A stretch of 64,000 nt of DNA, from positions 830,945 through 894,944 of the forward strand of contig ML992501.1 in the NCBI GenBank assembly GCA_010093995.1. The letters are read 5' to 3'. Every line of letters begins with the position of its first letter. Positions within the stretch are counted from its first letter, which is position 1. The position numbers and the translations under genes were made by a program. Shown here in pieces: positions 1-64,000 of this stretch. This DNA comes from Elsinoe ampelina. Taxonomy: Eukaryota. The notes below the pieces were generated by a model. It saw only the letters and a program-made list of their open reading frames with translations. It did not search any database and had not been told where the DNA came from.

Positions 1-185
1 ACTACTAACTATAGTAGTTAGAAGGTAATTAATAGACTCTAGGCTTAGATAGCTTATAACTTTATACTAAGATTAATTAGTCCTTATAGTAACTATAGTA
101 AATACTAATAGTAGATAATTATTATTATTCCTTAATAGTTAATACTATAGTAGTAACATTAGGAGCTTTAGAGTTATTCTTAAGA
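1..185 (-). mobile_element. Continuation of the interrupted Copia element (GAG-pre-integrase region); extends beyond window start
   Basis: Minus strand ~22-72 reads *YKVISYLSLESINYL, the RIP form of WHKVMGHPSPESIDHL. This is the motif expected downstream of the Copia protease. Confidence 0.75.
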
Positions 186-190
186 ATATA

Positions 191-377
191 TATAAGGGCT
201 TAGTATTAGAGTGGCACTTAGTAGCGGCTAGTCCCGCTTACGTAACGTACTTAAATATCCTACGTAGCGCTTACGCCTAGGGCTTAATAGTAATTAGTTC
301 TACTACTAATAGACTATTTAGTTAGATAGGTATTCTCTATATTACGATATATATAGCTTTAATATAAGGCTTTAACA
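191..377 (+). repeat. 5' LTR of Gypsy element
   Basis: Starts TA (RIP-mutated TG) and ends CA. Differs from 6694-6880 at 9 positions, all transitions. Confidence 0.96.
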
Positions 378-466
378 GTTCTAATTACTCCCCTATAGTC
401 GTAATCTATTAGACTCTATAGACAACTAGAACTCTATTAGCAAGGCGCCTATACCTTGCATAAACA

Positions 467-3400: not shown

Positions 3401-5285
3401 AGGATTTATAAAGCTAAAATAGCTAAATAGCTAATAAGCTTACTAGGCTACCTTCCTTACTACTTTTAACTTTATAATAGAGCATTAGCTAGGTATAAGA
3501 AACCTAGCCGATACGCCCTCGAGGCGCCCTAACTATATAGCGGAAAAGCAAGAGGTATTATATCTCCTTTCTACTCTTTAGAATAAGCTTTGTATATAGG
3601 ACTAGACTACTAATATTAAGGAAGCTACTCCGCTTATTAGACATATCTACGCCACATATAAGGCTACTCTAGGACAGGCCTAGGCTACCTATACGCTATA
3701 TAGTAGCGACTTCTCTTCTAAGAACTTCTAGGGGCTTATAATAACCTAGCGAGTTATAGTTATAGCAACTATAAGAGAGAATCCCTTTAAAGATCTATCT
3801 ACTAACCTAATGTTAGTAGTAGAGCTACTATAGAGATAAGACCCTAAGATTATAAAGCTACGTTTATAAGCGGGGAGTAGTAGAGACAAGAGTAGAGCGC
3901 TATAGAATATATAAGATAATCTTCTCTTCTATAAAGAGTCGCTAGTTATTCCGAATAATAGTACACTTAAGGCGTAGGTACTATATATACACTATAATAG
4001 CGAATAGGCTAGTTACTTTAGTAAGGATAAGACACTTAAACTTCTCTTACGGAAGTACTTCTAGGCAACTATAAGGAAAGATATTAATAACTACATATAG
4101 TTATACTAAGTATGCTAGAAATATAAGGCGCACTACTATTGCCTCTATAGCGAGCTACGTACGCTACCGATACTAGACTACCTATAGTAAGAAATTATAA
4201 TAGATTTTATTACTAACCTACTACTAAGTAAGCGAGGTAGTAGCGTCTATAATACAGTGCTAGTGATTGTAGACTATTACACTAAGATGTTACTATATAT
4301 CTCTACTACTAAGAAGTACACGTCTATAGAGCTAGTAGAGATCCTACGTAACTACGTTATTCGCTATTATAGTGTCCTAAGAGGAATAGTAAGCGATCGA
4401 GGATTAGTCTTTACTAGCTAGTTCTAGAGTGAATTCTATTACGAAACGTGTATAAAGCGCAGGCTTAGTATAGCCTTTTACCCGTAGATAGATAGCTAAA
4501 CTAAGTAGCAAAACTAGATATTAGAATAGTACCTAAGGTGCTACTATATAGAGCTATAGAACGACTAGGCCGAACGTCTATTACAAGCGGAATTTATAAG
4601 CAATAATAGCGTTTATACTACGCTATATATAAGCCTCTTCTAAATAATATATAGCTACTATCTAGAGTTAGAGGTAATAGCTATTAAGTCTTAGAACAAG
4701 ACTTTAGAGGGAAGAGTACTAGTAGTAGCGGAGTTAGTATAACACTTATAAGATATATACGCGAAGCTAGTAGAGTAATAGAAAGAGGCTTCCGCCTACT
4801 AGGCTAAGTACTATAATAGGAAGCATATGCTAAGGGTATATAGCGTAGGTAACTTAGTGCTACTCTTAGCTAAGAACTTATAGCTACCTATACTAAAGAA
4901 GAAGATAGAACTATAATTCCTTAGCCTATTCTATATACTTAATATAATTAAATCGTAGGTGTATTGCCTAGCTTTGCCGAGTTAGTATTACATCTATAAT
5001 GTCTTTTATATATCTCTTCTCGAACTATAGATAGATAGAGCTAGTAAGGAGCTAGAAGAGAGTATACCTCTCGCTAACGAAGTAGATAAGTAGATAGTAG
5101 AGAAGATCCTAGGCAGGAGAACTATAAAGGGTAAGGTATTCTACTTAGTAAAGTAAAAGGACTAGCCTATTAAGTTTAATAGCTAGAAACTTAAAGAGAA
5201 TTACGTAAATATAAGAGAGCTAATCGCTATATACAAGTTATAGCCGAGAGTAGCTAAGAAAGGTCGCTAGAGGCGCGGATTATAG
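467..5285 (+). pseudogene. RIP-degraded gag-pol (gag, PR, RT, RH, IN, chromodomain)
   Basis: Recognisable motifs interrupted by many TAA/TAG stops derived from CAA/CAG/TGG. Ends are approximate. Confidence 0.9.
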
Positions 5286-5483
5286 AGTATATAAGTAGAT
5301 AGATTATATAAATACATAAATAGGGCAAAGAGTAGACTCCTTGTCTAGGGAAATACATTTTAATAAAGTACTACGCTTACGCTACTATTGTAGGTATTAA
5401 CCTAAACTCTATACTCTATTATGTTCTATATAAGGCCTTATTATAGGTATAGCACTAGAGATACGCACCTAGCTTATATACGC

Positions 5484-6320
5484 CTACTTATTCTTATTAC
5501 TATCCCCGTCTACCTCTATACTAAGATTCTCTCCTACGGGTGCTATAGGGGCTATAAGCTGCCTACTAGCTATAATATAGTTAATTTCGGCAGTGGAACT
5601 ACTAGAGTTACGTACTATCTAAACCTATTAGCTATATTTATAATGTATAAGGAGCGTAGTCTAGCTTACCTCCTTACCGATAGTAATTAAGCTATAAAGG
5701 CTATACCTAATCTTCTATAGCTTCTTAACCTTCTTACGCTCGAGTATAACACTACTAAGCAAGCCACCTATAGGCCCTATATAAGGAGTTAAGACCTCGC
5801 TAACGACCTTGTTCTTATTAGTGTAGTATACCTTAAGTATAGTCTTAAACTTCTTAACCTCGAGGACGTTCTTATAGGCTATAGTATATATATACTTCTC
5901 GGCCGTAGTAATGCCGGCCTAGTCGGGGGCCTTAAGCTTAGTAACTACGTTAAAGGCGTTAACGTATGTATTACGTAGGATAGATAGGAGCGGCTTGTAT
6001 ATATACTTACTATAAGCGTAGTATTTACACTTATAATAGAAGAAAATACTAAAGTTGCCTCTAGTATAGACACGACCTATTACAAATTAGTTATGTCCCT
6101 TATAAGAGCTCTATTAGCTTACCCTCGGCAACGCTATTAGTGTACCTAGTATAGGTATTAACCTCCTCCTTAAGAAGTAAGAGAGTTATAGAGTTAGCGC
6201 TAGTAGTAATAGCTCCCTAGGCGCTAGTAGACCTTACGCTACAAGTGTTAGCTATAGAGGGGCTAGAGTTAGATAATATAATAGTTATAGGTAGTACGCT
6301 TATATAGTAAGAAGTTAATA
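5484..6320 (-). pseudogene. RIP-degraded, spliced antisense accessory gene inside the Gypsy element; Zn-cluster-like protein
   Basis: Minus-strand introns at 6077-6122 (GTAAGC..ACTAAT..TAG) and 5619-5669 (GTAAGC..GCTAAT..TAG), plus a probable third at 6239-6303 (RIP'd donor..GCTAAC..TAG). The spliced frame is continuous apart from RIP-type TAG stops. 5' end approximate. Confidence 0.7.
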
Positions 6321-6693
6321 AAATATAGATGTATTTTAGGTAAAAAAGGAAAATATAAGGGGGAACAACAAGATTATATAGACTAACCTCTAGTACACTA
6401 TATCTTTGTTATAGCCGCTAGTATAAAACGTATATCTTCTACGATACTACTAGGAATTCTAAGAAAAGTAATATTGTTACTACCGATTCGCTTTAGCGCT
6501 ATAGTAACTAGATAAACGCCCCTCTAGGAACTAGATTCCTAGGACTACTACTACTAGACATTATATAAGACATATACTAGACCTTCGTAAAAATGCCTTA
6601 ACTATCTTATATCTATATTACTTCCGAATAACACTATATATTACACACTTCTAGTCGAGAGCTAAGGATAGCTCTCCTAGAGGAGAAGGCAAT

Positions 6694-6880
6694 TATAAGA
6701 GCTTAGTATTAGAGTGGCACTTAGTAGCGGCTAGTCCCGCTTACGTAACGTACTTAAATATCCTACGCGGCGCTTACGCCTAGAGCTTAATAGTAATTAG
6801 TTCTACTACTAATAGACTATTTAGTTAGATAGGCGTTCTCTATATTACGACATACGTAGCTTTAATATAAGGCTTTAACA
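6694..6880 (+). repeat. 3' LTR of Gypsy element
   Basis: Direct repeat of 191-377, preceded by the polypurine tract and followed by TSD ATATA. Confidence 0.96.
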
Positions 6881-6885
6881 ATATA

Positions 6886-8551
6886 TTAGTTATACTTTAA
6901 TATAACTAAGAAGAGTATTTTTCCTTTATAGCTAATCTCTATAGTTTAAGTATTTTAGTAGACTCTACTATTAATAAACCTCCTAAGGCTAACTAGATTA
7001 GTTATAATTAATAGTATATAGGCTACTTTTATAAGATAGATAGTTATAAACTTTCCTTTATAAAGAGCTATAATATTAATAGTTCTCTAACTCTTAATAC
7101 TAAGTAAGGTATTACTATAGAATAGCTTCTTATAAAGTTCTATAATTCTAGTAACCTTATATCTATCCTTTATAGTATAATTATAGATATAATTAGTTAC
7201 TCTAGAATCTAGTATCTATAAGCTTAAGATATTAGTAGTAGCTAAGATAAATACTAAGTGTAATCTAATAGTAATAGCTATATTAATTAACACTAGTAGA
7301 GTTAACTCCTTTTAATATTATACTTCCTTAGTAATAGAAGTCTTAATTCTCTCTTTAAGAGTCTTATTATTTAGCTTTTGTTTAACCTCCTTTATAGTCT
7401 ACTAGTTTAGTGTCTATCCTTCTAGCCTTAGATACTTATTTAAGTAATAGTACTTAATCTACTTATACTAGCCTTAGTATATATATTTAGGCTCTCTAGA
7501 GAGACTAGGTTTCTTATAAAGAATATTCTTAGTAGCTATAGAGAAAGCTATAGCTCCCTTACTAGCCTTTATAGTACTATATAGCTTATAGAGTTTATAA
7601 AACTGTTTAAACTTAGTAATTAGTTTAAGCATAGTTAGTAGAGTTAGTAAATCTAGATTAATAAGGTACTTGTTAGTAAATACTAGTTTAGCCTTTAAGA
7701 TAGAGAGTAAGAAGTCTCTCTATAGCCTTAAGCCTTAAGCTTCTAGTAGATTATAGTTCCTAGCCTTATCTATAACCTCTTCCTATTACTAAAGCTAATA
7801 GTCTATATTCTATAAGGAAGAGTTAGATAGCTACTTCCTCTAGAGTGCTTTAACCTTAAGCTAAATAGCTATATTAGATAGAGTAAATCTATTCTTTAAT
7901 ACTCTAAGAATAGCCTATAGATAAGGATCTCCTTCTAGTTAGATAATAGTAAGAACTTATAGTACAATTAATAACTAAATAAGGCTAGCTAAATTAGCTA
8001 AGGCCTTATACTATTTATTATATTATACTTATTTCTCCTTATATATCTAGAAGAGTACTAAAAAGTTAGTATTTACTACCTCTAGCCTTTAAGGCTTAGG
8101 AAGCCCTTCTAGTTTAATAATCTTCTAGGGATTAATAAGGTCCTATATCTTAGTATTTAATACTCTTATCTTAATAATATATAGCTAGCTAGCCTATTTA
8201 GCTAATGTAGTAAGAATAATAGGTGTTTTAGCTATTAAGGTATTAGTATCTATAGTTATTTATTTCCTTGTTAATACCTAAATCCTATAGTTATAGTTAA
8301 GGTAGTTCTTAATAGATTCTAATACTTAAAAAGTAAGATAGTAGAGAATTAACTAATAAATAGAGTAGGAAAGTAACTAAGTAATATACTTATATAGAGG
8401 TAGTTATACCGGGCTTATAACTATTAACTTATGTAGGGGAGGAAAAAAGGATTAATTACTACCTAAACTACTAAAATAAGGTAGATTATAACTATATAAA
8501 TACTTAACCTAGTATACTAAAAGATAGCTAAATTAAAAGAACTCCTTAATA
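6886..8551 (-). mobile_element. Ty1/Copia LTR retrotransposon, 5' part (LTR, PBS, gag, protease), RIP-degraded
   Basis: Minus strand: PBS GTTATAAGCCC (RIP'd GTTATGAGCCC) at 8411-8421; gag N-terminus ILTT..*..*L.IIK....I*DLINP ~8130-8220; Copia-type knuckle KYIY*G*YK*IKYYYLN..LR (C.C...H.W..C.YL) ~7425-7492; protease *ILDSRVTN (WILDSGA) ~7190-7220. Confidence 0.85.
8422..8551 (-). repeat. Probable 5' LTR of Copia element
   Basis: Abuts the PBS; termini TATTAA...TTAATA fit RIP'd TGTTGA...TCAACA. The partner LTR is outside the window, so the outer end is uncertain. Confidence 0.5.
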
Positions 8552-8925
8552 GTAGCAGATTAAGACAATAATTATCCAATTTGATCATAGATTAGTAAAA
8601 TAGTAAGATAGTGTTTAGTTCAACCTTGGGATGAACTGAATCAGGGTCTTCTTGGCGCTCCAGCTTATGCCTCGGTTGACAGGAAGGTTGGAGAGCTGGT
8701 TTCCCAAAGCAGCTGACAAAGCCATGGCTGTTTTTGGATTCTCATCCGCATCACGACCGTCATACTTTCTGTCAACCGTCAAAAGTCCCTCCACAGCCAG
8801 ATTGATTACACTGAGGGCGATTGACCTGCTAGCGTGGACTGCTAATAGTTTTTGCGTCAGGAAGAGCCACTCCTTTCTTTAGTTGCAGAACGTACCACCC
8901 AGGACGCATGCGCATCGTCGAGACC

Positions 8926-10227
8926 ATGTCCACCACCAAAACGCCTACAGACCGATTTTCATACGTTGGAGGCCTGTTCTCGGAAACTGCTACCCGCGAT
9001 TATTTCGAGGCTCAATACGTCGATTGGGATCAGAGAAAAGTATACGTCGTGTTTGGGGCGCAGCCCGCGGGAACGATTCGTAACGACCATGATGGCGCAT
9101 TTGACTGGAATCTTGCGATCATTGAGGAACTCTTCGCCACTGTCGAGTCTATCCCGTCCCAAGCTTGGTCTCTCGAGCTCGGGGAAGGCTTCCGACTTGT
9201 CTCTACCGATAGACTACCTCCAAGCGGTGACTTCCGATGCGCCCCGTATCATCCCCATCTGAGCGATAGCCGCATGCTATCGAACGCTCGCACAGTGACA
9301 AGGGCACACCTGGTCGAGGACGAAAGGCTGGGTTGGCGGGTGGATAAATGCCACTACATAACAGAGTCTATGATCCGTAAAGACGTCATCTTCAAGTATG
9401 ATTTCATCCCAACATCGCTGCCGAACTCATGGGACGAAATCCACACGCACTACCAGCTTTCAGGACACCCCCTCATAGTTAGCTTCGATAGGGTCGTTGT
9501 TGACGAGGTGGAGGGCCGTATAGTTGGCTTCACGACAGAATTCATTCCTGGTGGCGCTCTGGACAGTATGGTATCGCCGCAATTCACACTACGGCACTTT
9601 CAGCAGCTCACAGACGTCATCGACGATCTGAATATTGGATACCGTGTCCAGCACTGCGATGTGCACCCAAGAAACATCCTCTTGGATTTAGCGAGCGATT
9701 CGATCAGATTGCTTGATTTCAACTACGCCGAAAGGATCGATGTCAATCCTCGGTCAGATCGCAACGATGAAGCCGGGGTAGCGTTCACCTTGTATGAGCT
9801 TGCAACTCATGACTATGAGTTGAGAGGCAGGCATGCCCAGTATCCCTCAGTACAAGCCATCTTGAACAAGACAGACTGGCCCCTGCATAGTGAATCCTGT
9901 ATTCGGGGCGATATCGCCGGATTTCGGCGACACCTCGATCACTGGTTGCGACTCAGAACGGAGCCCGAGCCTCAGATCACGACCTCTTACACGAAAATAC
10001 AAGATCTACCTCCCCTTCCACTCGCACCTCGGATTCCTTCCTACGATGAGACCGGCAGTCCGACTGAACCTCTCCACGGCTGGGGCATCATGGAGCAACT
10101 CAAAGACAGCGGTGAGTACTTTGTAAAATGGGAACGCCTTTCTAGAAGTGAGCTGGCTTCTCAAACAGCATACCTATCGAACGGCGACCCACTACATGGG
10201 ACACTTCCGTGCGTACAAGATTCATAA
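8926..10227 (+). CDS. Atypical fungal protein kinase, paralogue 1 (alternative ATG at 8908)
   Basis: Single exon; VIFKY Lys, W.E helix C, HCDVHPRNILL, LLDFN, FTLYEL; N-terminal DWDQR motif shared with three paralogues. Confidence 0.88.
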   Translation: MSTTKTPTDRFSYVGGLFSETATRDYFEAQYVDWDQRKVYVVFGAQPAGTIRNDHDGAFDWNLAIIEELFATVESIPSQAWSLELGEGFRLVSTDRLPPSGDFRCAPYHPHLSDSRMLSNARTVTRAHLVEDERLGWRVDKCHYITESMIRKDVIFKYDFIPTSLPNSWDEIHTHYQLSGHPLIVSFDRVVVDEVEGRIVGFTTEFIPGGALDSMVSPQFTLRHFQQLTDVIDDLNIGYRVQHCDVHPRNILLDLASDSIRLLDFNYAERIDVNPRSDRNDEAGVAFTLYELATHDYELRGRHAQYPSVQAILNKTDWPLHSESCIRGDIAGFRRHLDHWLRLRTEPEPQITTSYTKIQDLPPLPLAPRIPSYDETGSPTEPLHGWGIMEQLKDSGEYFVKWERLSRSELASQTAYLSNGDPLHGTLPCVQDS

Positions 10228-15503: not shown

Positions 15504-16778
15504 CTAATCATCCACACATGGTAGCTCCCCTTCCAGTGCTTTTCCATTGGCGAGGTAAATTACATCATGCACCAGCTTGTACTCTGGCAGACGCTGCCAC
15601 GAGATTCTCCTATGCTCCCAGTCATACTCGTCGTCATAAATCCCAGTGACAGGGGATATCGACCACTTGTTCGGCCTTCTAGGCAACGGCAGCTCGTCGG
15701 CGACGTGTTCTGGACACGCTGTGTAGTGACCGATTGGCGATAAGTCTGCCCGATACTCCAGCCAATTGGTCAGTTGGAGCCTGAATTCATCGACGGAGGC
15801 ATCAAGCTTGATACCGTCCCGAAGCTGCCATTCCTTCATGTTGACGACAATGTCAATCTCTGGCCATTCGCAGACCGCATCACGATGACTGTAATCGCCC
15901 GTCAGGATCTCATATATTGTGAACGCAACCCCCTTTGTATCAGCTCGGTCCGCGAGCTCTGGGCGATCTGATGTGATCCTGGACGAGAAGCCGAAGTCGA
16001 TGAGCTGTATGGATTCTGTTGCCTTGTCGAACAGTATGTTTCCTGGGTGGATGTCGGAGTGGTGGACTCCGTACTTGAGGTTAAGGTCATCAATAACGCT
16101 AGTCAACTGGTGGAGGTACTTGAGCTTGAAGATTGTTGGTGGACTATCCCTCAATGTGCCTCCCTTGACGTAGGCGATGGTGAGTCCAAGGATCCGATGT
16201 CCACTCTCATCCGTGACAATACGATCGAACGGCACGGTGAAGGGGTGTTTCGGCAGTTGGACATAGAGCACGAGCTCTCTCCACAGCCATCCGAACCAGT
16301 CGGGGACTGCGGAGTACTTGAAGATGACTTGCTTCCTGCCTTGTGTTCTCGTGTAGTAGGAACACAGGTCGATCTGTTGGTCCAACCTTTCCTCCTCGAT
16401 CAGATGGTCCCATCTAATGGTGTGTGCTGCAGCCAGGCTAGGGAAACCCGCAAGCCTTGGATATGGATCTGGTGAGGGATCCATTTGAAGAGGTGGTTCC
16501 CCGCCCGCTGACAAGATGTCGTATTCTGGCGATATCTCGACGGTCGAAGCTGTTGGCGGGAGCTCATCGATCTTGGACTGTAGTAAATGGCGGATCTTGT
16601 TGAATGAACTCCCCATGTCCGGATCGAAGTGTCCCTGGGGTAGACGACCGTAAACAGTATAGACCCTTCTCTGATCGGCATCGACGAGTTGGTAATCGAC
16701 GAGATCAAAGCCTCGACCAGGCTGGCAGCCACTGCCAGAGATCTGAATGAGCCTGTCCGCGGATGATATCATGGTCAA
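15504..16778 (-). CDS. Atypical fungal protein kinase, paralogue 2
   Basis: DADQRR, VIFKY, WRE, HSDIHPGNILF, LIDFG, FTIYEILT. Confidence 0.88.
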   Translation of the reverse strand: MTMISSADRLIQISGSGCQPGRGFDLVDYQLVDADQRRVYTVYGRLPQGHFDPDMGSSFNKIRHLLQSKIDELPPTASTVEISPEYDILSAGGEPPLQMDPSPDPYPRLAGFPSLAAAHTIRWDHLIEEERLDQQIDLCSYYTRTQGRKQVIFKYSAVPDWFGWLWRELVLYVQLPKHPFTVPFDRIVTDESGHRILGLTIAYVKGGTLRDSPPTIFKLKYLHQLTSVIDDLNLKYGVHHSDIHPGNILFDKATESIQLIDFGFSSRITSDRPELADRADTKGVAFTIYEILTGDYSHRDAVCEWPEIDIVVNMKEWQLRDGIKLDASVDEFRLQLTNWLEYRADLSPIGHYTACPEHVADELPLPRRPNKWSISPVTGIYDDEYDWEHRRISWQRLPEYKLVHDVIYLANGKALEGELPCVDD

Positions 16779-17168
16779 ATTCTGATGTCGGTGACTGCAA
16801 TGTTACAACATAGATAGCAAGAGTGACTCTCGGAGGTTACGGCTGGCTTCTTGAAGCATTTACAGTGACGTCTAGACGGTAATGTATTATCGGGAACCGC
16901 TGGGTACAACAAAGTTCGTGGGTGGATAGTCGCCGACCGCGCATGGATTGGGGCTGAGTTGTGCCAGTAGCCGCTGCGGCACGGTATATAGCACATCACA
17001 AAAAGTCCGGCGGCAAACGAGACCTCGTGTTTCAGCTTCAGCCAGGCTTAGCGAAGTGATACGACTCAGGATCCAAATGAGCAGTAGGCTTTGGAGGAGA
17101 CGCAGACGGATGATGCCAATTTTCGCTGACACACGGAAACCTGTTACTCCGTTGCTTCCTTCCTTGTG

Positions 17169-18461
17169 CTACAAGATTGCTTCGAGTGTTCCATCCAAAG
17201 GATCTCCACTTGCCAGATACTCAACACCCTTGATCCTTTTGGCGGCCTCTGGCCGATCCCACTTGACTTGGTATTTGCTACCATTCGCTTCATCATGGAC
17301 TGGTAGATCCAGCCCCTTCGAAGGATGTTCTTCGCCATGGTCTGCGCTGTCGATTTGAGATTTCTCAGGATTTGAGAAGCTCGGAGGTTTTGGTATGTGC
17401 GCTGGACAAGCACTCCAGTGCTTGACCACGCGATTGGCTCGGGCCTTCAACCAGTTTTGCAATGTCTGACAAAAGGATTCCACATCTCGGTCCAACAGGA
17501 CATCTCGGTGGATCTCCCAAGTCTTCATCTTTAGTATGCTCTCGACATCAGGATAGTAGAAGACTTCCGATCGACGGGAGTTATCCCTGGTGATGAGCTC
17601 GTACAGAGTGAAGGCCAGACCTGCTGCATCGTCCCGTCTGTCCGTGGCGTAGGCTCGGTAGTCCCCAATCCACTCCGAAAAGTTGAAATCCATGAGTTTG
17701 ACAGAATCGCTCTTTTCATCGATGAGGATATTACGAGGGTGCACATCTCGGTGGAGGATGCCATACTGCAAATTGAGGTCGTCCACAACCGTGATAAGCT
17801 GCTCCAGCCATTTAAATTTGAAGATCCGGGGAGGATTGCATTCAATGCTACCACCTGGTACGTACTCGGCCGTGAAGCCTAGGACTCGTGCATCAGTCTC
17901 GTCGATGACCACTCTGTCGAAGCTGGCGATATGCGGATGCCTCGGTAAAGACTTCCAGAGATGTAATTCCTGCCAGATCATCATCTGGTTGCTGAACATG
18001 CAGTAGTACTTGAACGAACAGTACTTCTTTGCTGATTGCTCCGTCCTGTAGTAGCAGATGTCTACCAGTGGGGAAGTCCGGTCGACCTCTATGAGTTGAT
18101 TGCGTTTAATCGTGGGAAGGCCGACGAGCGACGGGCAGTCCGCGAGTTTGTGGTAGAAGGGAGCAAGCCGAGTATCCTCAGGTGGCGAGCAAGCACTGGA
18201 GTCTAGTTCGAAGTCTCGGTCAAGGTGGACTATCCAATCGTCGGGCTCGAGTTTTGTGATCGCACGGCCAACGCCCTCAGCGATCTTGTCGTGGACCGCT
18301 TCTTCGTCGTCGCCGTACAACTCCCCGCTTGGTCGGCGTCCGAAAGCGAGATACTGACCGCGCTGATCCCAATCCGTGACTGTGAATCTGTAGCTATCGT
18401 AGCCGTCGAATTCGCCTTGCATGCCTCCATTGCAGAAGAACCTGTCACCAGGCTCGATCAT
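17169..18461 (-). CDS. Atypical fungal protein kinase, paralogue 3
   Basis: DWDQR, CSFKY, WQE, HRDVHPRNILI, LMDFN, FTLYELIT. Confidence 0.88.
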   Translation of the reverse strand: MIEPGDRFFCNGGMQGEFDGYDSYRFTVTDWDQRGQYLAFGRRPSGELYGDDEEAVHDKIAEGVGRAITKLEPDDWIVHLDRDFELDSSACSPPEDTRLAPFYHKLADCPSLVGLPTIKRNQLIEVDRTSPLVDICYYRTEQSAKKYCSFKYYCMFSNQMMIWQELHLWKSLPRHPHIASFDRVVIDETDARVLGFTAEYVPGGSIECNPPRIFKFKWLEQLITVVDDLNLQYGILHRDVHPRNILIDEKSDSVKLMDFNFSEWIGDYRAYATDRRDDAAGLAFTLYELITRDNSRRSEVFYYPDVESILKMKTWEIHRDVLLDRDVESFCQTLQNWLKARANRVVKHWSACPAHIPKPPSFSNPEKSQIDSADHGEEHPSKGLDLPVHDEANGSKYQVKWDRPEAAKRIKGVEYLASGDPLDGTLEAIL

Positions 18462-18839
18462 GGTGTATCGAGAGCTGTCAGAGGCTGGAGCGCTGCACTG
18501 CTCGGTATTGGAGTGGTCGGGGATATTTCACTGGCAATCACGATCAGACATATATATGTCGAGATGAATACCAAGAACCGGGCTGTGTGTTGCCCAACTT
18601 CTAAGCGCCGGTGTGGTAGCCGGGGTACTAGTGAGGGTGACACGGATCGGCGCTAAATGGTTCGATTAGGATTTCAAGAGTGGCTGATACATCTCCGTCA
18701 TTCGTATTATGCTCTTGCCGCCCAAGGTTGCGGGTCACAGCAACCGTAGCCAATGCTGGAATCATGTGGACAGTTTAAACTGGCCAAAGGTCTCTACGAA
18801 GCTCGAAATTTTACGCGGAAAATCATACCAAGCTTGAAT

Positions 18840-20321
18840 TCATCGCATGTCTGTAGTTCGATTGAAGGCTGTGCGGATGAGTCCAAGCAGCCGAAACAGC
18901 AGACTGGCCGGTCTTGAGAGTGAGTACTTGAGAAGTCCGCCCACGCCCCGAATGCTGCTGCTCAAGACGCCGAGCACTCTCCAGAAGATCCGGAGCAGAG
19001 GCAAGTGAGGATGTGGTACAGGCTTGCCCGAGAAAAGGTACTGGACGCCTGGGTGAAGCTGTTCCTGTGCGGGTCGGTCCCATTTGACTCGATAGCGACC
19101 GTAAGCATCCCATTCTCCATTACTTGTGCTAGAAAGGACCTTGTCTCGAGAAGAAGGTGGCTCGCTCGATCGTTTCGGCATCGGCTCAAAGTCGGGAACA
19201 TGCTGTGGGCAGTCTGTGAAGATTTTGATGTCCTTGTCCTTCCTGCTGTGAATCCAGAGAGTCAGGGTATCACGATAGACCTCGACTTCGTGATCCAATT
19301 TGCGCAGGGGATCGTGCTGCCACGTCGTCAGGTCAAGGACAACCTTCGGTGAGGACAATTGCTCCCAATGACCTCGATTCTCAAAGTCGCCCGTGATTAG
19401 CTCATACAGAGAGAATACAGCGCCGGAGATGTCATTGTTAGGGTCCTTGTCATGGTCCCAAAGACCTAGTCCGTTGCTCTGAATGTCGGAAACATCATGG
19501 TAGATCGATGGGCCGATTCTTCGAGCATGATTGAAGTCGATGAGCTGAAGCTTATCCGTACGAGGGTCGACCACCATGTTCCTTGGATGAATGTCGCGGT
19601 GCATTACCCCGTGCTGCAGGTTCAATTGATCAATTGCTTGAAGCAAATCCTTGAGCCACTTCAGCTTGAACGTTCTTTCGCCTTTCTCAAGCGTGCCTCC
19701 TGGAACGAAAGGTGTGGAGAAGCCAACAAGTCGATGTTCCACTTCATCCACGATCAAGCTATTGATGGTGACAATGTTCGGGTGAGGAGGAATGCTCCTC
19801 CAGATGTCAATTTCTTGCCAGAGGCTCTCCAAACCCGAGCGGAAAAGAGCGTACTTGACAACCAAAGTCATCTGATCTCCGCGCTTCGTGGTGTGGACGC
19901 ATTTGTCGACCCGCATTTGCATCCGGTCAACCTCGATAAGTTCATCTCTGGCGAAGCGAGGAAGTTCTGCCAGATGAGGACAGCCACTCAGCAGTGGATA
20001 AGGGGTGGTGTCGCGAGGGTCGTACTCGAGCGATTGGCCCTTGTCGGCTGAGATAAGGTCTAGTTGAGGTCCAAATCTGAAAGCCCACGCTGGAGGTATT
20101 ATTCGAGAAGCATTGTCCTGCAAAGCAAGGGTCAATTTGTCTTCCAGATTTTCGTAAGCTTGGGCATCATCTTCGGGGAGGTGTTTTGGTGTCTCTCCAG
20201 ATACCACCACGTGGCGTCGGACATCCCAGTCTTGGAAGACCAGATCGTATACTGTGCCCGTCGTACCGCGATACAAACCTCCGCCGGTTATCGGCGCGAA
20301 TCTGTGGCCGAGCGGAATCAT
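18840..20321 (-). CDS. Atypical fungal protein kinase, paralogue 4, with hydrophobic/basic C-terminal extension
   Basis: DWDVRR, LVVKY, WQE, HRDIHPRNMVV, LIDFN, FSLYELIT. Confidence 0.88.
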   Translation of the reverse strand: MIPLGHRFAPITGGGLYRGTTGTVYDLVFQDWDVRRHVVVSGETPKHLPEDDAQAYENLEDKLTLALQDNASRIIPPAWAFRFGPQLDLISADKGQSLEYDPRDTTPYPLLSGCPHLAELPRFARDELIEVDRMQMRVDKCVHTTKRGDQMTLVVKYALFRSGLESLWQEIDIWRSIPPHPNIVTINSLIVDEVEHRLVGFSTPFVPGGTLEKGERTFKLKWLKDLLQAIDQLNLQHGVMHRDIHPRNMVVDPRTDKLQLIDFNHARRIGPSIYHDVSDIQSNGLGLWDHDKDPNNDISGAVFSLYELITGDFENRGHWEQLSSPKVVLDLTTWQHDPLRKLDHEVEVYRDTLTLWIHSRKDKDIKIFTDCPQHVPDFEPMPKRSSEPPSSRDKVLSSTSNGEWDAYGRYRVKWDRPAQEQLHPGVQYLFSGKPVPHPHLPLLRIFWRVLGVLSSSIRGVGGLLKYSLSRPASLLFRLLGLIRTAFNRTTDMR

Positions 20322-20837
20322 GCTGTATGGTCGGGCGGTGGCAATTGGGAGGAAGACTATTGATGGAGAATATCTTGTTGGAAAGAAGTCGTCGTGGAGT
20401 TGACGGCACTGATGAGCATCTGCGTTGGCGCGGAACGTATCACGGTTGTTTCAAGACACGGCCGCTTGCCCTTTCATAGCTCAAAACACTCAGAGAGATC
20501 AGTTCTCGATCGAGCGGTTGTCAATGCACTGTTGGACTGGGGAACTGGGAACCGATGTCGATGACCACTCAGCAGCATCTCTGACGACCAGCGCCTAGCT
20601 CTCTCGAAATTGTGGCATAGCAGCCATGTCACAGCCAGTGACGGGGCCTCGTCAAGCGCTGCGGCACAACTCGATTCTATTCTCGATCATGTCCGACCGG
20701 ATCCTCGCAGACATATATACCTCCTGTGTGACGGAGACAGAGTGTGCCATTCACAAACTCGTCACCATCATCCCTACTACCACGCCAGTTACTTACCCAG
20801 GATCCCGACATCCGCTAGATCACCACACGCTTGCAAT

Positions 20838-56050: not shown

Positions 56051-57485
56051 GCCTCGACTAGCGAATGAAGTTGGGAACGAGACGAAGGTGGAAGCGACAA
56101 AGAGCGCATGAGAGGAGTGAGACCGGGTGGGAAGCAGAGGGATGCAGTGAGGTGTGTGTTTGGGCTGGCGTGTGGAAACAGAGGGCGAGGTCGTACAGGT
56201 GTTCGCGACAAGTCTGCTGGGTCGTGCTGGGTCGTGCTTGGTCTTGCTGGGGCACGGCGGAGTGATTGGCTGAAGTGATAGCCCGGTTTTGGTAGCCAAG
56301 AAAGGCCGGAGCTTGAAAAAAACCCAAGCACCTGCGACCTCTTTCACTCAGGACCTGTCTCTGTTCCGCTGCACTTTATTTTTCGATCGGTCAAATATCA
56401 GGGCTCATGACAGGGCAAACAGGCATGTCTTTGGTCATTACTCTAGCACATGTCTGCAACGTGTGGGATCATGAGAAAATCGTTACACGCACCGCTCTTG
56501 TGTCGCTCATCAGCTATTTTCTCAGCTTATCTCCCCAGCCCTTGCAAGAAACTACTGTACTCTCGACGTGTCACAACAGGGAAGGCGCAGAAATTGACAG
56601 CATGGCGAGACATGCGCTTTGACGGTGACAGACCCCAGTAGCCACAGCAATCTCTGGATCATGACAGAGGGCAGTCGAACGAGCCGCAGCCACCTCCATC
56701 ACACGCCGACTACTCTCAAACCGTCCTGCATTGGTGCCGCAATTTGCTGCACGCTAAGATTAAAAATTTTACCAAATCTTCTTGTCGACTACCGCGGACC
56801 TGGCTCGCTGCAGGTGGAATTTGTTTTACTGTGAAATACCTGCCCCTCTGGATGATGCCGCGGTTGTCACGGTCCAAACAAGCCATGGACCAAACAAACC
56901 CATGGCAAGAGGCGCTCGTGGAAGTGTTTCCCCGGACCTTGGGTTGCATGTCACGAAGCCAGGATATCCCTCTGTGCTGTCGACATCTGCCCCTGACGAG
57001 AGATGCCGCTTGCCATGTGCGCGATGATGTGCTTGGTGAAACAGCCCTCTCAATCTTGTAATCACGCCGAGTCCTTCGATCTCTTGTGGTCGGCAGCGAT
57101 TTATAATCTGGGTGGATTTGTTTACAGATTATTGCCGCATCCACCAGGTTTGTTGTGATTGGCTTTGACGGTCCGCGCTTCCGGCAGCAGCTCGCGGCAA
57201 CTTTGTCCTGCAGCCTCTGCTCGATTCGGAAGTTCCGCGGTCGGCTCTGGGGATTTTTGCTTTGACAGCTGACGGAACTTGCCTCGATGCCTGAGGATGC
57301 CTGAGGATGCATCCCGTCGATCAGGAGCTAGCTTGTGAACCTAGAAGAGCTCCATCATACTCGATGCATTTGGCTACAGAACAGCACACAGCATCAATCG
57401 GCGGCGCAACCACCTCTGTCGACATCGTCTAAGCCGGAAGCCTTGTCACTGTTGTCTAAATATGTCCTCCAACTAATCATCAACC

Positions 57486-59174
57486 ATGAACAGACAGAAC
57501 CCTTTTGGATCCAAATTCTTCCAACCAGCTTCTCAGATCCTGAGGAACTCAGTCACGGCGGCGAGGGAACAGCTGAGAGCTCTTGACGACGCTGCACTGG
57601 AGCTCGGAGTCACCAGCTCTTCCCTCATGGACTCTCGCCCTTCTCGAACTAGTACTCAGACGCCGGTCGAGCTCAAGCCCAGATCTATACCCTTGGTCAA
57701 CATCTCCAGATCTCCTTCGCCCTTGGCAAGGATAAGAAGCGCAGCGCAGTCCGAGGATGAAGATGAATGGGAGTATGGCGACGCTTCCCAGAGCAGACCA
57801 CTCGTCAGTAAGAGCGCGAATGCCTATCACAATCAGCCTACTGGCTTCTTCAAGAAGGGAGGGATCGGTCATTTCCTCTTTGGCACCAACATTGGCTCGC
57901 AAATCTACATTGGTCTCTTAGTCTTCTGGGTGGGCGGCTGTCAATTTGGCCTGCTGCTCATGAATCGCTTCATCCTCTGGACTGGATTGTACAAGTAAGG
58001 ATATCTCGTCATGCCACGATAGAGCACTAACCCCACCAGATTCCCCTACCCGTTGACCATGACTTTGCTTCAACTTGCCATTTGTCATGTCTTTATCCTT
58101 GGATTTGCGAGCCTTACTAGAGGTCTGAGTAGCCTCTTCAATCTGCTCGGTCTCGGAGCTGTGGTAGCGCCCTCTCGTGCCTACAGTCGCGGAGACAGAG
58201 CAGCTCGCTACAAAGGTGGTCAACGCCATCGATCTGTAATGCGCAACATCGGCGACTGGCTCACTCATGGCTCTGGTGGCATAGCTGGTGGTGGTCTTTT
58301 CGAATTCGAAGGCAAGACCGTTCGCCATGTTCTCCCCGTGGCTGTCGTCTTCTCCCTCAAAGTTGTGCTCAGCAACCTTTCATACGCGTATGCATGTCCC
58401 CACTCATCGCATCAAGAAAGGGTATTGATTCGAGGTAGGTATGCTGTTCTTCCCATGTACATGCTTGCTCGCATTGCCATTATACCGCTTTCCCTACTGT
58501 TCACAACAATTCTGTTACGCGAAACACACTCTATAGCTACACTCTCAGCTTCCCTTACGGCAGTGCTAAATCTACTCATGGCCACCATCGAACCCGGCAG
58601 AGTCACTTGGGAGTCCATTGTCGCCGGTGTCTTCTCTTCTCTGTTCGTCGCTCTTTACCCTGTCGTCAAGCTTCGCGCATATAAGCAAGTGGTCTCAGAC
58701 TTGGTGCCACAAGGCGACATCCTCGCTCCCTCCGACGACGACTCTGCCCCGACTTACCTCGGCACAAAGGAAGAAACCCGCGCTTACTGGAGGATACTGC
58801 ACTACACCTCTCTCTTATCCATGATGCTCATCGCGCCCATCGTCCTCATCTCTGGCGAGATCCAACAAATCAGACGCAACTGCTACTTCATGGACGTACC
58901 CTGGTTCTGGTTTCTTATGCTTTGTGGAGGTGCTGGAAGCTGGGCTGTCTTCTCTAGCTTCTTGCTGCTCATCAAGGCGACCAGTCCGTTGACAGCCACT
59001 TTTGTCAGCATACCCAGGAGTGCTTTCCAGCTCATGGTTCTGGACAAATTCCGATTGCCTGTTCATAGCTGGGTCGGTGTCAGTCTGTGTTGGGCAAGTT
59101 GTTTGTGGTATGTCGGTGTGAGGCGGCGGGAGGAGTGGAATAGGATGAGAGGCAATATGCAGAGTGGATTATGA
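57486..59174 (+). CDS. Nucleotide-sugar / triose-phosphate transporter family (DMT) membrane protein
   Basis: LLMNRFIL..FPYPL.MTLLQL, LSNLSY, LIKATSPLT, multiple TMs; two introns. Confidence 0.85.
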
Positions 59175-59437
59175 GCAGAAGGGACATCACTTCATCCGAC
59201 ACCTACTGGTCAGATTCATCTTTTATACTCGGCCGTGATGAAGATTTCAGGTTGGGTACTGGTTGCTGGTCCTAATCGTAATAAATTTTGCTGTCCATGA
59301 CTGTGCGTACTGGGACTGGCACAAATCTCACCACTTTGCTCTATGATGATTGTCAAGCTATTCAGAGCATTCCATATGGCGTTTTCCTGCTCCTGGAGAG
59401 GGATTGCCGGCACCCACGGTTCTGACACCCTACAGAA

Positions 59438-59860
59438 ATGGATAGCCTACTGGATCTATACTCATTCCTGGGCTTGTACGATGCTGATCTGGATCTTATG
59501 CAACTCGATGGAACGGCAGCCCCCGAATTAAGCATGAAATAGGATGTTATCTTCGTCTGCATCAACGTGGCTGGAAGAATTACCGACCCACGCCACATCG
59601 ATGAGATTGGTATCGCGACTCTCGATACCCAACACATAGCTACGGCAGCTCCAGGTCAAGATCTAGCCAACTGGTACGATCGCATTGGTCTTCAGCGCTC
59701 TGTCCACCAGAATAATGCCCCAGCCAACACTCCGGCTAGTCTCATCTTCCCGCTCGATGCTCTGCAGATGCACGTCGACAACGCCCTCATGCCCCCAGAA
59801 CAAGATCAACCTCCAGAGAACAGTGCTGGCGCAGGGGCAATTTTTGGTGCAGCACCGTAG
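59438..59860 (+). pseudogene. QIP/Gfd2-like DEDDh exonuclease copy A (truncated pseudogene)
   Basis: MDSLLDLYSFLGL..SMK*DVIFVCINVA..IDEIGIATLDT..PG..NW; in-frame TAG at 59540, ExoI DxE changed to NxA, no HNAGND motif seen. Confidence 0.75.
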
Positions 59861-60599
59861 TGTTCTGGATGTAGGAAGCAAGTGATGGATCAGGATCATC
59901 GTCGTCATCCGGTTGCGACATCAATTCTTTGGCTAGGTGGAAGGGGCATTGCCGACCATCTGATAAGACATGTGTAGATTTGGATCTGTAAGACGTGCTT
60001 TACCACAGCTGGGGTAGCTTGTACGATGTAGGTAGGTCTAGAAGCATGCGGACAACCCTTGTTTCAATTGGATCTATGCGTGTGGCAATGCTGTTTCGTA
60101 CACGTCAATCTGCGCAGTCCTCCCCCCTGCACCAAATCCCCGACTCACAAACAGATGTCGGCCACCATGTAAGCTGTGCGAACTCTGTCCTCCACTCGTG
60201 ATGATTGGACATCAGGGCACTTGTCACAAAGATGCGACGTTCAATTGTCGTTGGTCCGCTAATCCCTTGATAAGCACACAGCTGTGCCTGAGATCGAACG
60301 GACAACCATAATTCTGATAGAGAGGGGGACAAACGACCCACAATGTTGAATGCATCTTGTGCCAGCAGTAATGGTCATCCATTCGTCGGGACACTGCTTA
60401 TCCCACTTCCTAAAGCCAGACCATAGACAACAGCAAGCATGTCGGGCAAGCAATCACCAGCACTCACAAGGCTCATTCAGAGCAATCCTATGATATCTCA
60501 CAGACAATATAAGCCCCCGACCCCACCCCTTACCAGCCTACCAGACTTCCAACTTACCACATCTTCACTCACCCAAACCCCATCACAATCACGATCAGC

Positions 60600-61426
60600 A
60601 TGTACTGGCCCACCTCCCCCATCCCCCCACGCAGCTTCGGCTTCCTCCAACGCCTCCTCGGCCTCACCAACACCCACTCCAACCACGCCACCTCCCCCGA
60701 CCTCCCCGCCCCCTACAGCATGAAAGGCGACTTCATCCTCGTGGCCCTCGACATTAAAGCCTGGGAACACGCCCACACCAGCATCACCGAGCTCGGCATC
60801 GCCCTCCTCGACACCCGCGACCTCACATCCCCCCCGGCGACGGCGGGGAGAACTGGCTGGACTTCATCCAGGCGATGCACTTGCGCGACGAGGAGCTGCT
60901 GCATCGCGTGAACAAGCGCTACGTCAAAGGGTGTCCGGCGGGTTTCAGGTTTGGGGTCAGCGAGATCGTGAGTGAGGCGGAGATGAAGACGGCTCTTCGT
61001 CGGACGCTACGCTATGGACGTGACGGGCCGGGAACAGGGAAGAGGAAGGTGGTGGTTGTCGTGCATGATCGGGCTGGTGAGGAGAGGTTGTTGCGGCGTC
61101 TAGACAAGGGAGCGTTTGGGAATGCGAGGGTGGTGTTTACGGCTGATACGCAGGTATTTGCGAGTAAGGAGGGGAGGAAGTGCGGGTTGGTGGATCTTTT
61201 GGGGGTGTTGGGGATGGAGAGTGAGGGGTCGCATAATGCTGGGAATGATGCGGTGTATACGTTGCAGGCATTGGTGAGGATGGCGTGTTTGAGGACGTTC
61301 GAGCCGAGTAGGTTGGGGGATAGGTTGGTGCGGTTGAGGGGAGAGGGGAGAGGGCAGGAAAGAGGGGATGGACGGGGGGATCGCGGCAAGATGGAAGGAT
61401 GGTTTGAGGGTGCGGAAAGAGACTAG
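60600..61426 (+). pseudogene. QIP/Gfd2-like DEDDh exonuclease copy B (frameshift in a C7 run; ExoI E to K)
   Basis: FILVALDIKAWE..ITELGIALLDTR, frameshift at 60829-60835, then PGDGGENW..VNKRYVKGCP..ADTQ..HNAGNDAVYTLQAL. The frameshift may be a homopolymer error. Confidence 0.8.
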
Positions 61427-61679
61427 AGAGAGGCATTATGCTTACATCTGGTCAATAGTAGGTTGAACAACCGGTGTGCCAGAGATTGGAAAACAGAGAG
61501 CAAGATGGCGCGTACCAATAGCTGGGTCAAGTCGAGGTGTGGCCACAAACCTCGTGGCACAGCAGTCCTCACTCGAAGTCTATCTTATTAGTCCAACCAA
61601 GGAAAACTTGTATTGCTTCTGTCCAGAATTGCTTTTGCCCACATCCATAATGACACTGCTACCGTGACTGAGCTCAAGA

Positions 61680-62750
61680 ATGCGCCTTGCGAAATTCATC
61701 CTTCCACAAACACCGCGGCTAATACGCCATTCTTGCATCATTGGCATGCCCAACCCCTACAGTGACCTCGGACAGCTTGGCTCGCTCCTCGGTCTCTCAT
61801 CAAATGGCGAGATCCAAGGTGGTGCTGTAAAGACAATCCCCTCTGCCGATGGACCAGGCAATGTTTTTGTCTGTGTCGACCTAGAAGCATTCGAATTCGA
61901 CCAAACAAAGATACTGGAAGTCGGGGTCGCCACCCTGGACAGTCGCCACTTGCTTGACTTGACGGCAGATGACCTTGTCCCGACCTGGCTGAGCAAGATC
62001 AAGAGTGAGCACTACATTGTCCAGGAGCGACAACATCTGGTAAACAAGAGATATGTGAAAGGCTGCCCGGAAGGATTCATCTTTGGCAAGAGTAAAATCG
62101 TCCCTTCGGCGAAAGCTCAGGCCCTCCTCCGCCAGCACTTGTCGCAGCCACGCTCCTTACTATCCGGTGATGCAGATGTATCAGAAGCGGCAGAGCCCAG
62201 CGTTTACATAGTCGCCCATGGTCTGAAGAACGACACGACTCTGATGAAGAAATTTGGCATCGACAATGTGTACAATCTTGGCCTGACCGGAGACATAGAT
62301 ACTCAGAGAATATGCAGTGGGAAAAGGAAACCTGCCGGACTGAAGAAATTGCTGGACGCTATCGAACTACCATACGAAAATCTACATAACGGCGGCAACG
62401 ACTGCACCTACACTCTTCAGGCATTAGTGAAGATGATCCATATGCATTATCATGAGCCTGAAGATCTCGAGAAGCGCTTGGACTCGCTGCGACATCCGCC
62501 CGAAGAGCCTGAAAAGAAGAAGCAGCGAAGGGGACCGAAAGGTGAAGGTGAAAGGAGTGTCACGAATGTGATGAGGCCGACGACAGCAAGGCGAGAGTGC
62601 GAGCTTTGCAAGAGACGTTCACCGCTGGACGAGATTCTGTTGGTCAATTGTGCCGATTGCCAGCGCTGCTTTCACAAATCGTGTGGACATGCGAACCACG
62701 AGCTTGCTAATGATGGTCGGTGGCGATGCAGAAGTGAGAATGCGATCTGA
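61680..62750 (+). CDS. QIP/Gfd2-like DEDDh exonuclease copy C with C-terminal PHD-like finger
   Basis: VCVDLEAFE, EVGVATLD, VNKRYVKGCP, VAHGLKND, IDTQ, LHNGGND; then CELC..CADC..FHKSC..WRC. Start may be 61746. Confidence 0.88.
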   Translation: MRLAKFILPQTPRLIRHSCIIGMPNPYSDLGQLGSLLGLSSNGEIQGGAVKTIPSADGPGNVFVCVDLEAFEFDQTKILEVGVATLDSRHLLDLTADDLVPTWLSKIKSEHYIVQERQHLVNKRYVKGCPEGFIFGKSKIVPSAKAQALLRQHLSQPRSLLSGDADVSEAAEPSVYIVAHGLKNDTTLMKKFGIDNVYNLGLTGDIDTQRICSGKRKPAGLKKLLDAIELPYENLHNGGNDCTYTLQALVKMIHMHYHEPEDLEKRLDSLRHPPEEPEKKKQRRGPKGEGERSVTNVMRPTTARRECELCKRRSPLDEILLVNCADCQRCFHKSCGHANHELANDGRWRCRSENAI

Positions 62751-63006
62751 GCTGCATCTGAGCTATACCATCACATCGATTGAATTATCGATCGCAACGA
62801 GAGGTGGAAGTGACGAAGAATGATGGAGGCCTCTTGGTATGGACGACATGAACCTCAGTACATGTGCATCGCATGGCCGGCATGGAATCGCCACATGTGA
62901 ATGGTGAGTGAGCCTCCTTTCAGTAAGGTATATATTGACTCTCGACAGCATCTTCCCTCAGTGATTCGAATCGAACGAGTTCGGATAAGCGCTGCTCAAT
63001 CAAACC

Positions 63007-63328
63007 GGCCGTATGGTCTAGTTTGGAGTCGTCTACCCCTCTCATCGTTCAAAGTCTGCTATGACTCTAAACACCTCCGCGAGGTTCAAGCCGTCGGTTC
63101 GACTCTTGTCGACTGTCGCATTAATCCTGTCTCATCACGCTTCTTTGTGAGGAACATCCACCAGGAATTCCACATGTCGAAGCCTCTGTTAAGTCAGGCG
63201 CTGCTATACCACGAGTTCACGCTAGCGATACCTACATTGCAGCTCGGGCGGCCGATCCGCCGTACACAATCGGTTCATGTGTGCGTAAACAAGAACCACC
63301 AAAAAACCTTCGGGTAGATGATTTTTTT
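63007..63328 (+). ncRNA. Candidate Pol III (tRNA-like promoter) transcript or tRNA-derived element
   Basis: A box TGGTCTAGTTTGG 63014-63026, B box GGTTCGACTC 63096-63105, cUUCGg hairpin 63306-63315, T7 run 63322-63328. Does not fold as a clean cloverleaf. Confidence 0.35.
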
Positions 63329-63496
63329 GGCTTTCCACTTGGGCTGCATCACGTGGTTGTCGGTATCACATGCTGGCCTTCCTTTTGTCCCGCACGATCT
63401 ATCTTCACACACACACCACTTCTCACATAAGGACCTACAACACCTCACACCACATCAACTCGCACCGCATCACTCACATCAAGACACTCGGCAACC

Positions 63497-64000
63497 ATGA
63501 CTCCGGTGAGTGCCCCTCATCTCACTTCTGACGGACGGATCACATCTGACTTCCCTGCAGAAAGATCAGCCTGACCGCGATGAGATTTTTGACAAAGTTC
63601 AGGCCCTGTTCGGCTTACCTCAAGTTCACAATGCGAGCAGCGCTTTCGATCCCGAGACATGCACTCAGATCAGACCATTGAAAGACGCTGTCTTCATGGC
63701 CATCGACATTGAAGCATGCGAAACGGATCAAAGCAAGATCACCGAGGTTGGCATAGCCATGCTGGATACTCGTGTGACCCGGCGTATCTCGCCAGGTGAA
63801 GGCGCTGCAGCTTGGACGGCCACGATTCTCGCGCGTCATTACATCACGAAGGACTTTATCGAGTTGGAGAATACCAAGTATGTCAAAGGTGGAGAACCTG
63901 GTACCAAACAAGACTTTGCATATGGCACGAGCCAAGTCATCTCCATCGGCAAGCTTAAGAATTGGTTTCGCTACGATCTCGGTCATCCTCCTTACCCGGA
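63497..64000 (+). CDS. QIP/Gfd2-like DEDDh exonuclease copy D (runs off window end)
   Basis: MTP micro-exon, intron 63506-63560, then ..ALFGL..DAVFMAIDIEACE..ITEVGIAMLDTR..PG..W..ARHY..NTKYVKG; not shown in the ORF track. Confidence 0.88.

Follow-up and report, generated by a model that had tools for sequence, protein, structure and literature searches.

What kind of locus is the tandem array of QIP/Gfd2-like exonuclease genes in the plant-pathogenic fungus Elsinoe ampelina: a defence module still being amplified, or an older set of genes that has since been kept? The array lies in a 64,000-nt stretch of DNA, called the window here (GenBank assembly GCA_010093995.1, contig ML992501.1, positions 830,945 to 894,944 of the forward strand), and occupies its right-hand 4.6 kb, positions 59438-64000. 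The family includes the QDE-2-interacting protein (QIP) of Neurospora, which has roles in meiotic silencing and in the maturation of microRNA-like RNAs, and an initial annotation had proposed a locally amplified, diversifying array in birth-and-death evolution. Our analysis points elsewhere. We consider it probable that three small, single-domain exonuclease paralogues of the QIP/Gfd2 family (copies B, C and D) form an old tandem cluster that has been conserved, with a decayed, B-like fragment (copy A) upstream. The features of the array are as follows.

59438-59860, + strand: copy A, relic of a B-like paralogue, recognisable by homology over about 90 codons
60600-61426, + strand: copy B, an inactivated gene, with ATG at 60600 and the stop codon TAG at 61424-61426
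60829-60835, + strand: run of seven C (C7 homopolymer) at which the frame of copy B shifts from 0 to 2; one more C restores the frame
61746-62750, + strand: copy C, an intact, single-exon gene of 334 amino acids (aa)
62598-62732, + strand: PHD-like, Cys/His-rich tail of copy C (PF00628, 21.1 bits against a cut-off of 24)
62904-62948, + strand: intron of 45 nt (GT..AG) within the C-D spacer
63497-64000, + strand: copy D, intact, with ATG at 63497 and exon 2 running past the window end
63506-63560, + strand: 55-nt intron of copy D

The four copies correspond to four + strand matches to Pfam family PF21762, all above its gathering cut-off of 27 bits. Copy A scores 30.8 bits over positions 1-49 of the 188-position profile, copy B 36.8 bits (1-45) and 121.9 bits (32-188) in two frames, copy C 171.2 bits (1-188) and copy D, which is cut by the window end, 80.7 bits (1-90). 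PF21762 is a DEDDh family, called 'DNA polymerase III subunit epsilon-like, C-terminal domain' in Pfam and Gfd2/YDR514C-like in UniProt. A hidden Markov model (HMM) of the family, run over all six-frame pieces 20 aa or longer from the entire window, matched five pieces, all from A-D (E values of 1e-10 to 1e-121), and found no further family member outside them. The sole strong solved relative of the array proteins is PDB entry 4wbq, the exonuclease domain of QIP ('QDE-2-interacting protein'), which was matched by C (E = 1.4e-24), D (E = 1e-32) and the E. fawcettii orthologue of B, P0023 (E = 1.1e-34), the HMMER scores of the array proteins ranging from 90 to 123 bits. Copies B, C and D share the motif NxxYVKG and keep a 'YLGL/LLGL' motif about 40 aa ahead of ExoI; the latter is found in 121 of the 155 family proteins with at least 45 aa upstream of ExoI, QIP orthologues included. 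The family is large, with 3409 representatives at E<=0.001, of which 2269 reach E<=1e-10, among the 1.84 billion searched. The initial annotation was thus correct in seeing four same-strand paralogues, all of which exceed the family cut-off, and its assignment of them to the QIP/Gfd2-like DEDDh family is borne out by the PF21762 and 4wbq matches.

The age of the array was judged from its homologues. The searches covered proteins of up to 615 aa, longer QIP-type genes being outside their reach, and the nearest named proteins came from Elsinoe batatas, E. fawcettii, E. australis and Sphaceloma murrayae. Pairwise identity among the paralogues is 18-36%, while identity of the copies to their orthologues is 85-89% in E. 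batatas (C 85%, D 89%) and 65-70% in E. fawcettii (C 66%, D 70%, B 65% and 50% over two pieces); for C it is 57-58% in S. murrayae and E. australis. A careful maximum-likelihood tree, computed from 37 rows (named matches only), leaves out the copy A row (winA) and 14 other rows of a first, 52-row tree, including the long-branched Acaulospora and Phyllosticta. In this tree each paralogue forms its own orthologue clade: B with 4 rows (support 100/100), C with 5 rows (100/99) and D with 4 rows (100/99). Within each clade the species order, as far as sampled, is (window, E. batatas), E. fawcettii, (E. australis, S. murrayae), and Myriangium duriaei is sister to the C clade (95/88). The orthologues of B, C and D in E. 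fawcettii bear the consecutive locus tags 4g000850, 860 and 870, and in S. murrayae CAC42_2283 is the B and CAC42_2285 the C orthologue. From the low identity between paralogues, the one-to-one orthologue clades and the consecutive E. fawcettii tags, we judge that the array is old and conserved rather than recently amplified. The duplications would be older than the radiation of the Elsinoaceae, with the C/D split older than the split from Myriangium, and each paralogue would since have evolved as a one-to-one orthologue.

The proposal of a locally amplified, diversifying array is accordingly contradicted by these comparisons. Of the birth-and-death evolution claimed with it, the death part stands, since A is a relic, B is broken, and catalytic residues are lost in the B protein of S. 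murrayae and the D protein of E. fawcettii; the birth part does not. Stable one-to-one syntenic orthologues, the pattern which the initial annotation had itself named as telling against its proposal, were found within the Elsinoaceae/Myriangiales, where the evidence stops short of the class.

Several points weigh against an old, conserved cluster. Synteny was judged from the locus-tag numbers of protein records, not from DNA. The C and D orthologues of E. batatas carry the distant tags KVT40_002485 and 003527, and the adjacency of C and D may therefore fail in that species, or the tags there may not be positional. Orthologues of B in E. batatas and of D in S. murrayae were not found in the homologue searches, which does not imply a real loss. 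The support for one group of all Myriangiales copies is just 83/61, copy B stands in a polytomy in the tree used for the topology test described below, and B may be an older duplicate, to judge from these trees. The product of copy C was not among the protein-record matches, though those of D (P0024) and a truncated model of B (P0058) were; copy C may be missing from the deposited annotation. Finally, Getz et al. treat GFD2 and its paralogue as the QIP orthologues of the budding yeast N. castellii and report that their deletion changed RNA interference (RNAi) little (PMC7528652).

The catalytic residues were compared across the family in a 165-row alignment, in which the columns of the pentad (ExoI D-x-E, ExoII D, ExoIII H-x4-D) were read from P0075, a QIP orthologue. 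The pentad is DEDHD in 138 of the 165 rows, and 14 of the rows that differ have only gaps at some of the positions, being fragments or misaligned. Among the 13 full-length array members, DEDHD is present in all five C proteins, in three of the four D proteins and in none of the four B proteins. Within the window, copies C and D carry the complete pentad (D-L-E, ND and HNGGND in C). The exception in the D clade is P0057 of E. fawcettii, which has ExoIII H replaced by S and is annotated as a whole protein. In the B clade two rows read DEEHD, copy B of the window reads DKEHD and the S. murrayae protein reads S-K-Q. ExoII D is replaced by E in three of these four members and by Q in the fourth, that of S. 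murrayae. This last protein, P0081, has S-L-K at ExoI, Q at ExoII, an altered ExoIII spacing and a long branch (1.38), and is annotated as a whole protein of 249 aa. The change of ExoI E to K arose twice, since the species between the window and S. murrayae keep E.

Transcription of the array and the reality of its lesions were judged from contigs of four public runs (Logan) aligned to positions 59200-64000. X1 is a DNA run, possibly of the source sample, and its contig is identical to the window across 59200-64000. X3 comes from another sample and another study, and two GT..AG joints, absent from X1, show that it derives from RNA. X7, labelled with another organism, gave identical spliced pieces at low depth. 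X3, X4 and X7 were classed as RNA solely from such spliced joints, none of them being recorded as RNA, and only X3 counts as independent. The regions of all four copies are represented in RNA-derived contigs. X3 is without cover at 60014-60380, 60672-60746 and 61448-61631, gaps from which nothing is inferred, and contig depth cannot rank expression.

Copy A opens with ATG and carries an LLGL-type motif. It has an in-frame TAG at 59540-59542 and N-V-A at 59564-59572 where the other copies have DxE; its pentad is N-A with the rest absent, and no ExoII or ExoIII of copy A was found downstream in any of six frames with the family and clade HMMs. An unspliced X3 RNA contig, 59200-60013, covers copy A with its stop codon included, and an intron that would remove the stop was ruled out, as this contig has no joint over the site. 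Placement by tree was dropped because copy A, with an end branch of 3.41, joined none of the marked groups, and clade HMM scores were therefore used for its affinity. These were 54 bits for B and 32 bits each for C and D, and the stretch 'SMKxD' is common to A and B. By these sequence measures copy A is closest to the B lineage. A 2557-nt X3 RNA contig begins near the start of the membrane-protein open reading frames upstream (ORFs; 57477-59171, no Pfam match), continues through relic A and stops at 60013, with adapter sequence next. Relic A may therefore lie in the 3' untranslated region of the membrane-protein gene.

Copy B has D-I-K at ExoI (60750-60758), E in place of D at ExoII, and retains HNAGND at ExoIII. 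Its frameshift in the C7 run is real and not an assembly error, since it is identical in DNA and RNA: the X1 contig (word depth 150) shows it without a gap, and an X3 RNA contig, 60747-61447, bridges the run with 0 differences and no joint. No insertion or deletion at the C7 run was seen in the aligned contigs. An intron that would rescue the frame was ruled out, as there is no GT near the shift and the RNA contig has no joint there. The E. fawcettii orthologue P0023 is intact, with D-I-E, and the deposited model of B, P0058, is a 183-aa piece that starts past the shift. The end branch of B is 0.31, compared with 0.32 for C and 0.26 for D over equivalent paths from the same species split. Because it is no longer than these, the loss of the ExoI glutamate and of one base in the C run would be recent, or B is still constrained.

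Copy C is one open frame, with no joint in the RNA contig over it (61632-62902). Its PHD-like tail, also unspliced in RNA, falls short of a C4HC3 finger: the frame stops after the seventh ligand and the last zinc ligand is missing. The four named orthologues of C do not have such a tail, and their own tails differ. Positions 62619-62677 of the tail agree in 51 of 59 bases with a second locus in this genome; the tail looks as if it had been captured recently from part of a PHD-finger gene. The second locus has a word depth of about 259 in the RNA run X3. The full product of copy D, P0024, is intact at 265 aa, carries DEDHD, and is 100% identical over 63561-63998; the joint of its intron is present in X3 and X7. 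One X3 contig, 61632-64000, spans C and D with both introns removed, which is no proof of a single transcript. X3 and X7 both have the joint at 62904-62948 in their RNA contigs and the DNA contig of X1 lacks it, so that the C-D spacer is transcribed on the + strand and spliced. An ORF that starts from ATG 62901 stays in frame across this intron (spacer 62901-63317) without matching any Pfam family, and may represent a small gene, a long 5' leader belonging to D, or read-through out of C. What the initial annotation had said of the individual copies agrees with all of the above: the stop and the change of DxE to NxA in A, the frameshift and DxK in B, the intact frame of C, and in D an intact ExoI (D-I-E) in a gene that runs off the window.

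How the array relates to QIP was examined with the Sordaria protein P0075 (519 aa), which matches 4wbq at 451 bits and was therefore taken as a QIP orthologue; P0269 bears the name QDE-2-interacting protein. The trio B, C and D falls within a Dothideomycetidae clade with a support of 100 in the Shimodaira-Hasegawa-like approximate likelihood ratio test (SH-aLRT). A group apart from this clade holds Sordariomycete proteins, including the Sordaria QIP orthologues, Leotiomycete proteins and long Pleosporomycetidae forms. When all Dothideomycete rows were forced together, the arrangement was not rejected by the approximately unbiased (AU) test (p-AU 0.78), and the constrained tree was better by 7.6 log-likelihood units. 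On these trees the trio is thus compatible with being lineage-specific Dothideomycete co-orthologues of QIP. QIP of Neurospora crassa resembles the array in its Pfam family, its DEDDh pentad and its upstream 'YLGL/LLGL' motif. It differs in being one gene, compared with three tandem copies, and in its architecture. QIP orthologues are 519-588 aa long with the domain at about residues 250-490, whereas B, C and D are 265-334 aa long with about 40-65 aa before ExoI. The long N-terminal region of the QIP type is thus absent from the array: ExoI starts some 45-65 residues into B, C and D, as against residue 262 of P0075 and about residue 340-380 of the Pleosporomycetidae forms. The latter (727-766 aa) have the same domain and, of the relatives on the QIP side of the tree, are the nearest from the Dothideomycetes; their domain, at about residues 340-590, stands behind a long N-terminal region as in QIP and unlike the array.

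The namesake of the family ('Gfd2/YDR514C-like C-terminal domain') is Gfd2/YDR514C of Saccharomyces cerevisiae, likened here by family name. Gfd2 is linked to Dbp5. To our knowledge S. cerevisiae is without RNAi, so the Gfd2 family has non-silencing roles. At least three Dothideomycetidae sub-clades of the family appear in our trees. A comparative-genomics study lists a Gfd2/YDR514C-like orthogroup, OG0000354, with 113 members as expanded in psychrophilic Dothideomycetes (PMC11412873), so that multi-copy status in this class is already in print. The available part of that study gives counts only and describes no tandem layout, Elsinoaceae trio or pseudogenes. In literature listings on YDR514C and QDE-2-interacting protein we found no published description of a tandem QIP-like array in Elsinoe.

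Could the array nevertheless be a locally amplified, diversifying module for RNA silencing or antiviral defence, with the dead copies A and B serving as decoys for Argonaute or small RNAs? Its family includes QIP, which in Neurospora removes the siRNA (small interfering RNA) passenger strand, according to PMC7528652, yet all copies lack the stretch of about 250-350 aa found ahead of the domain in QIP orthologues, and no Argonaute, Dicer or RNA-dependent RNA polymerase domain was found among the 43 large ORFs of the window. Catalytic losses are concentrated in the array (3 of 13 full-length members, compared with 2 or 3 non-conservative ones among the other ungapped rows), RNA contigs still cover B, and the B protein of S. 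murrayae is annotated as whole despite its S-L-K. However, the dead copies vary by species, B being intact in E. fawcettii and E. australis, a pattern more in keeping with decay than with a conserved decoy. Of A a remnant of 90 codons is left, and it contains a stop. The divergence of the copies, their one-to-one clades and the consecutive tags in E. fawcettii show no sign of recent amplification. We consider such a module unlikely, and regard the reading of an amplifying defence locus as unsupported, given an old array and the lack of RNAi domains among the 43 large ORFs.

Two other explanations concern copy B itself. It might still be functional, through -1 ribosomal frameshifting on C CCC CCG (60830-60836), through a truncated post-shift protein, or as a pseudo-enzyme without catalysis. 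In frame 0 the heptamer fits the pattern X XXY YYZ, and slipping by -1 leads into the frame that continues the homology, but the 100 nt downstream (60837-60936) fold no better than shuffled sequence (z -0.08; 90 of 200 shuffles equal), and the E. fawcettii orthologue requires no frameshift. Past the shift 196 codons are open and the branch of B is not lengthened, features for which a recent loss accounts equally well. Although RNA contigs lie over B and the deposited annotation keeps the 183-aa model, even read-through would give a protein with K for the metal-binding E of ExoI, and homopolymer indels are the commonest spontaneous frameshifts. A functional B seems very unlikely to us. The same homopolymer is also a typical site of sequencing errors, and with X1 possibly the source sample, X3 is left as the sole independent witness against a B that is intact and merely misread or misassembled. 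That witness, with its two GT..AG joints, bridges the site without a difference, X1 shows the same run without a gap, and the ExoI change of E to K is independent of the C run; we regard an error as extremely improbable. An inactivated B in an old cluster remains our preferred reading.

The other genes of the window are ordinary core genes: a PAK-type kinase, VHS-SH3, dynamin, a KH-repeat protein, a PAP1 bZIP factor, a patatin-like protein, an Obg GTPase and others. Weak protein-kinase, APH or ABC1-type matches (30-42 bits) come from four ORFs, 432-536 aa long, which look like a second local cluster of a divergent kinase-like family:

8833-10224, + strand: kinase-like ORF
15507-16802, - strand: kinase-like ORF
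17172-18527, - strand: kinase-like ORF
18843-20450, - strand: kinase-like ORF

Positions 1-8000 of the window are AT-rich (GC content 0.30-0.36, compared with 0.51-0.60 elsewhere in the window) and hold no ORF of at least 130 aa; this segment resembles degraded repeat DNA bordering a gene-rich region.

What would the surviving genes do? With their full pentad and their transcription, C and D are predicted to be active two-metal-ion 3'-5' exonucleases. The metals would be held by the D and E of ExoI, the D of ExoII and the D of ExoIII, and the water would be activated by the H of ExoIII. By homology to QIP, the substrate would most likely be the 3' ends of single-stranded or nicked RNA. In several species, on the other hand, the B lineage is losing function. 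A role of the array in silencing is possible, and we think it rather doubtful. A more specific scheme is that in the Elsinoaceae a conserved tandem trio of N-terminally shortened co-orthologues took the place of the single QIP gene of other ascomycetes and shares out its functions. Active trimming of small-RNA 3' ends would fall to C, with a newly captured PHD piece in this species, and to D, and B would be heading towards a non-catalytic, Argonaute-binding regulator, given ExoII E in three of four species, ExoI lost twice independently and continued transcription. We hold this scheme to be improbable. If the trio were the sole QIP-type genes of the Elsinoaceae, it would be a natural case of QIP sub-functionalisation, and deletion studies of RNA silencing in Dothideomycete crop pathogens would face three short genes, not one. 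For the present, the value of the analysis is mostly corrective: copy B should be annotated as a pseudogene, and the array is better regarded as old and stable, not as an expanding defence locus.

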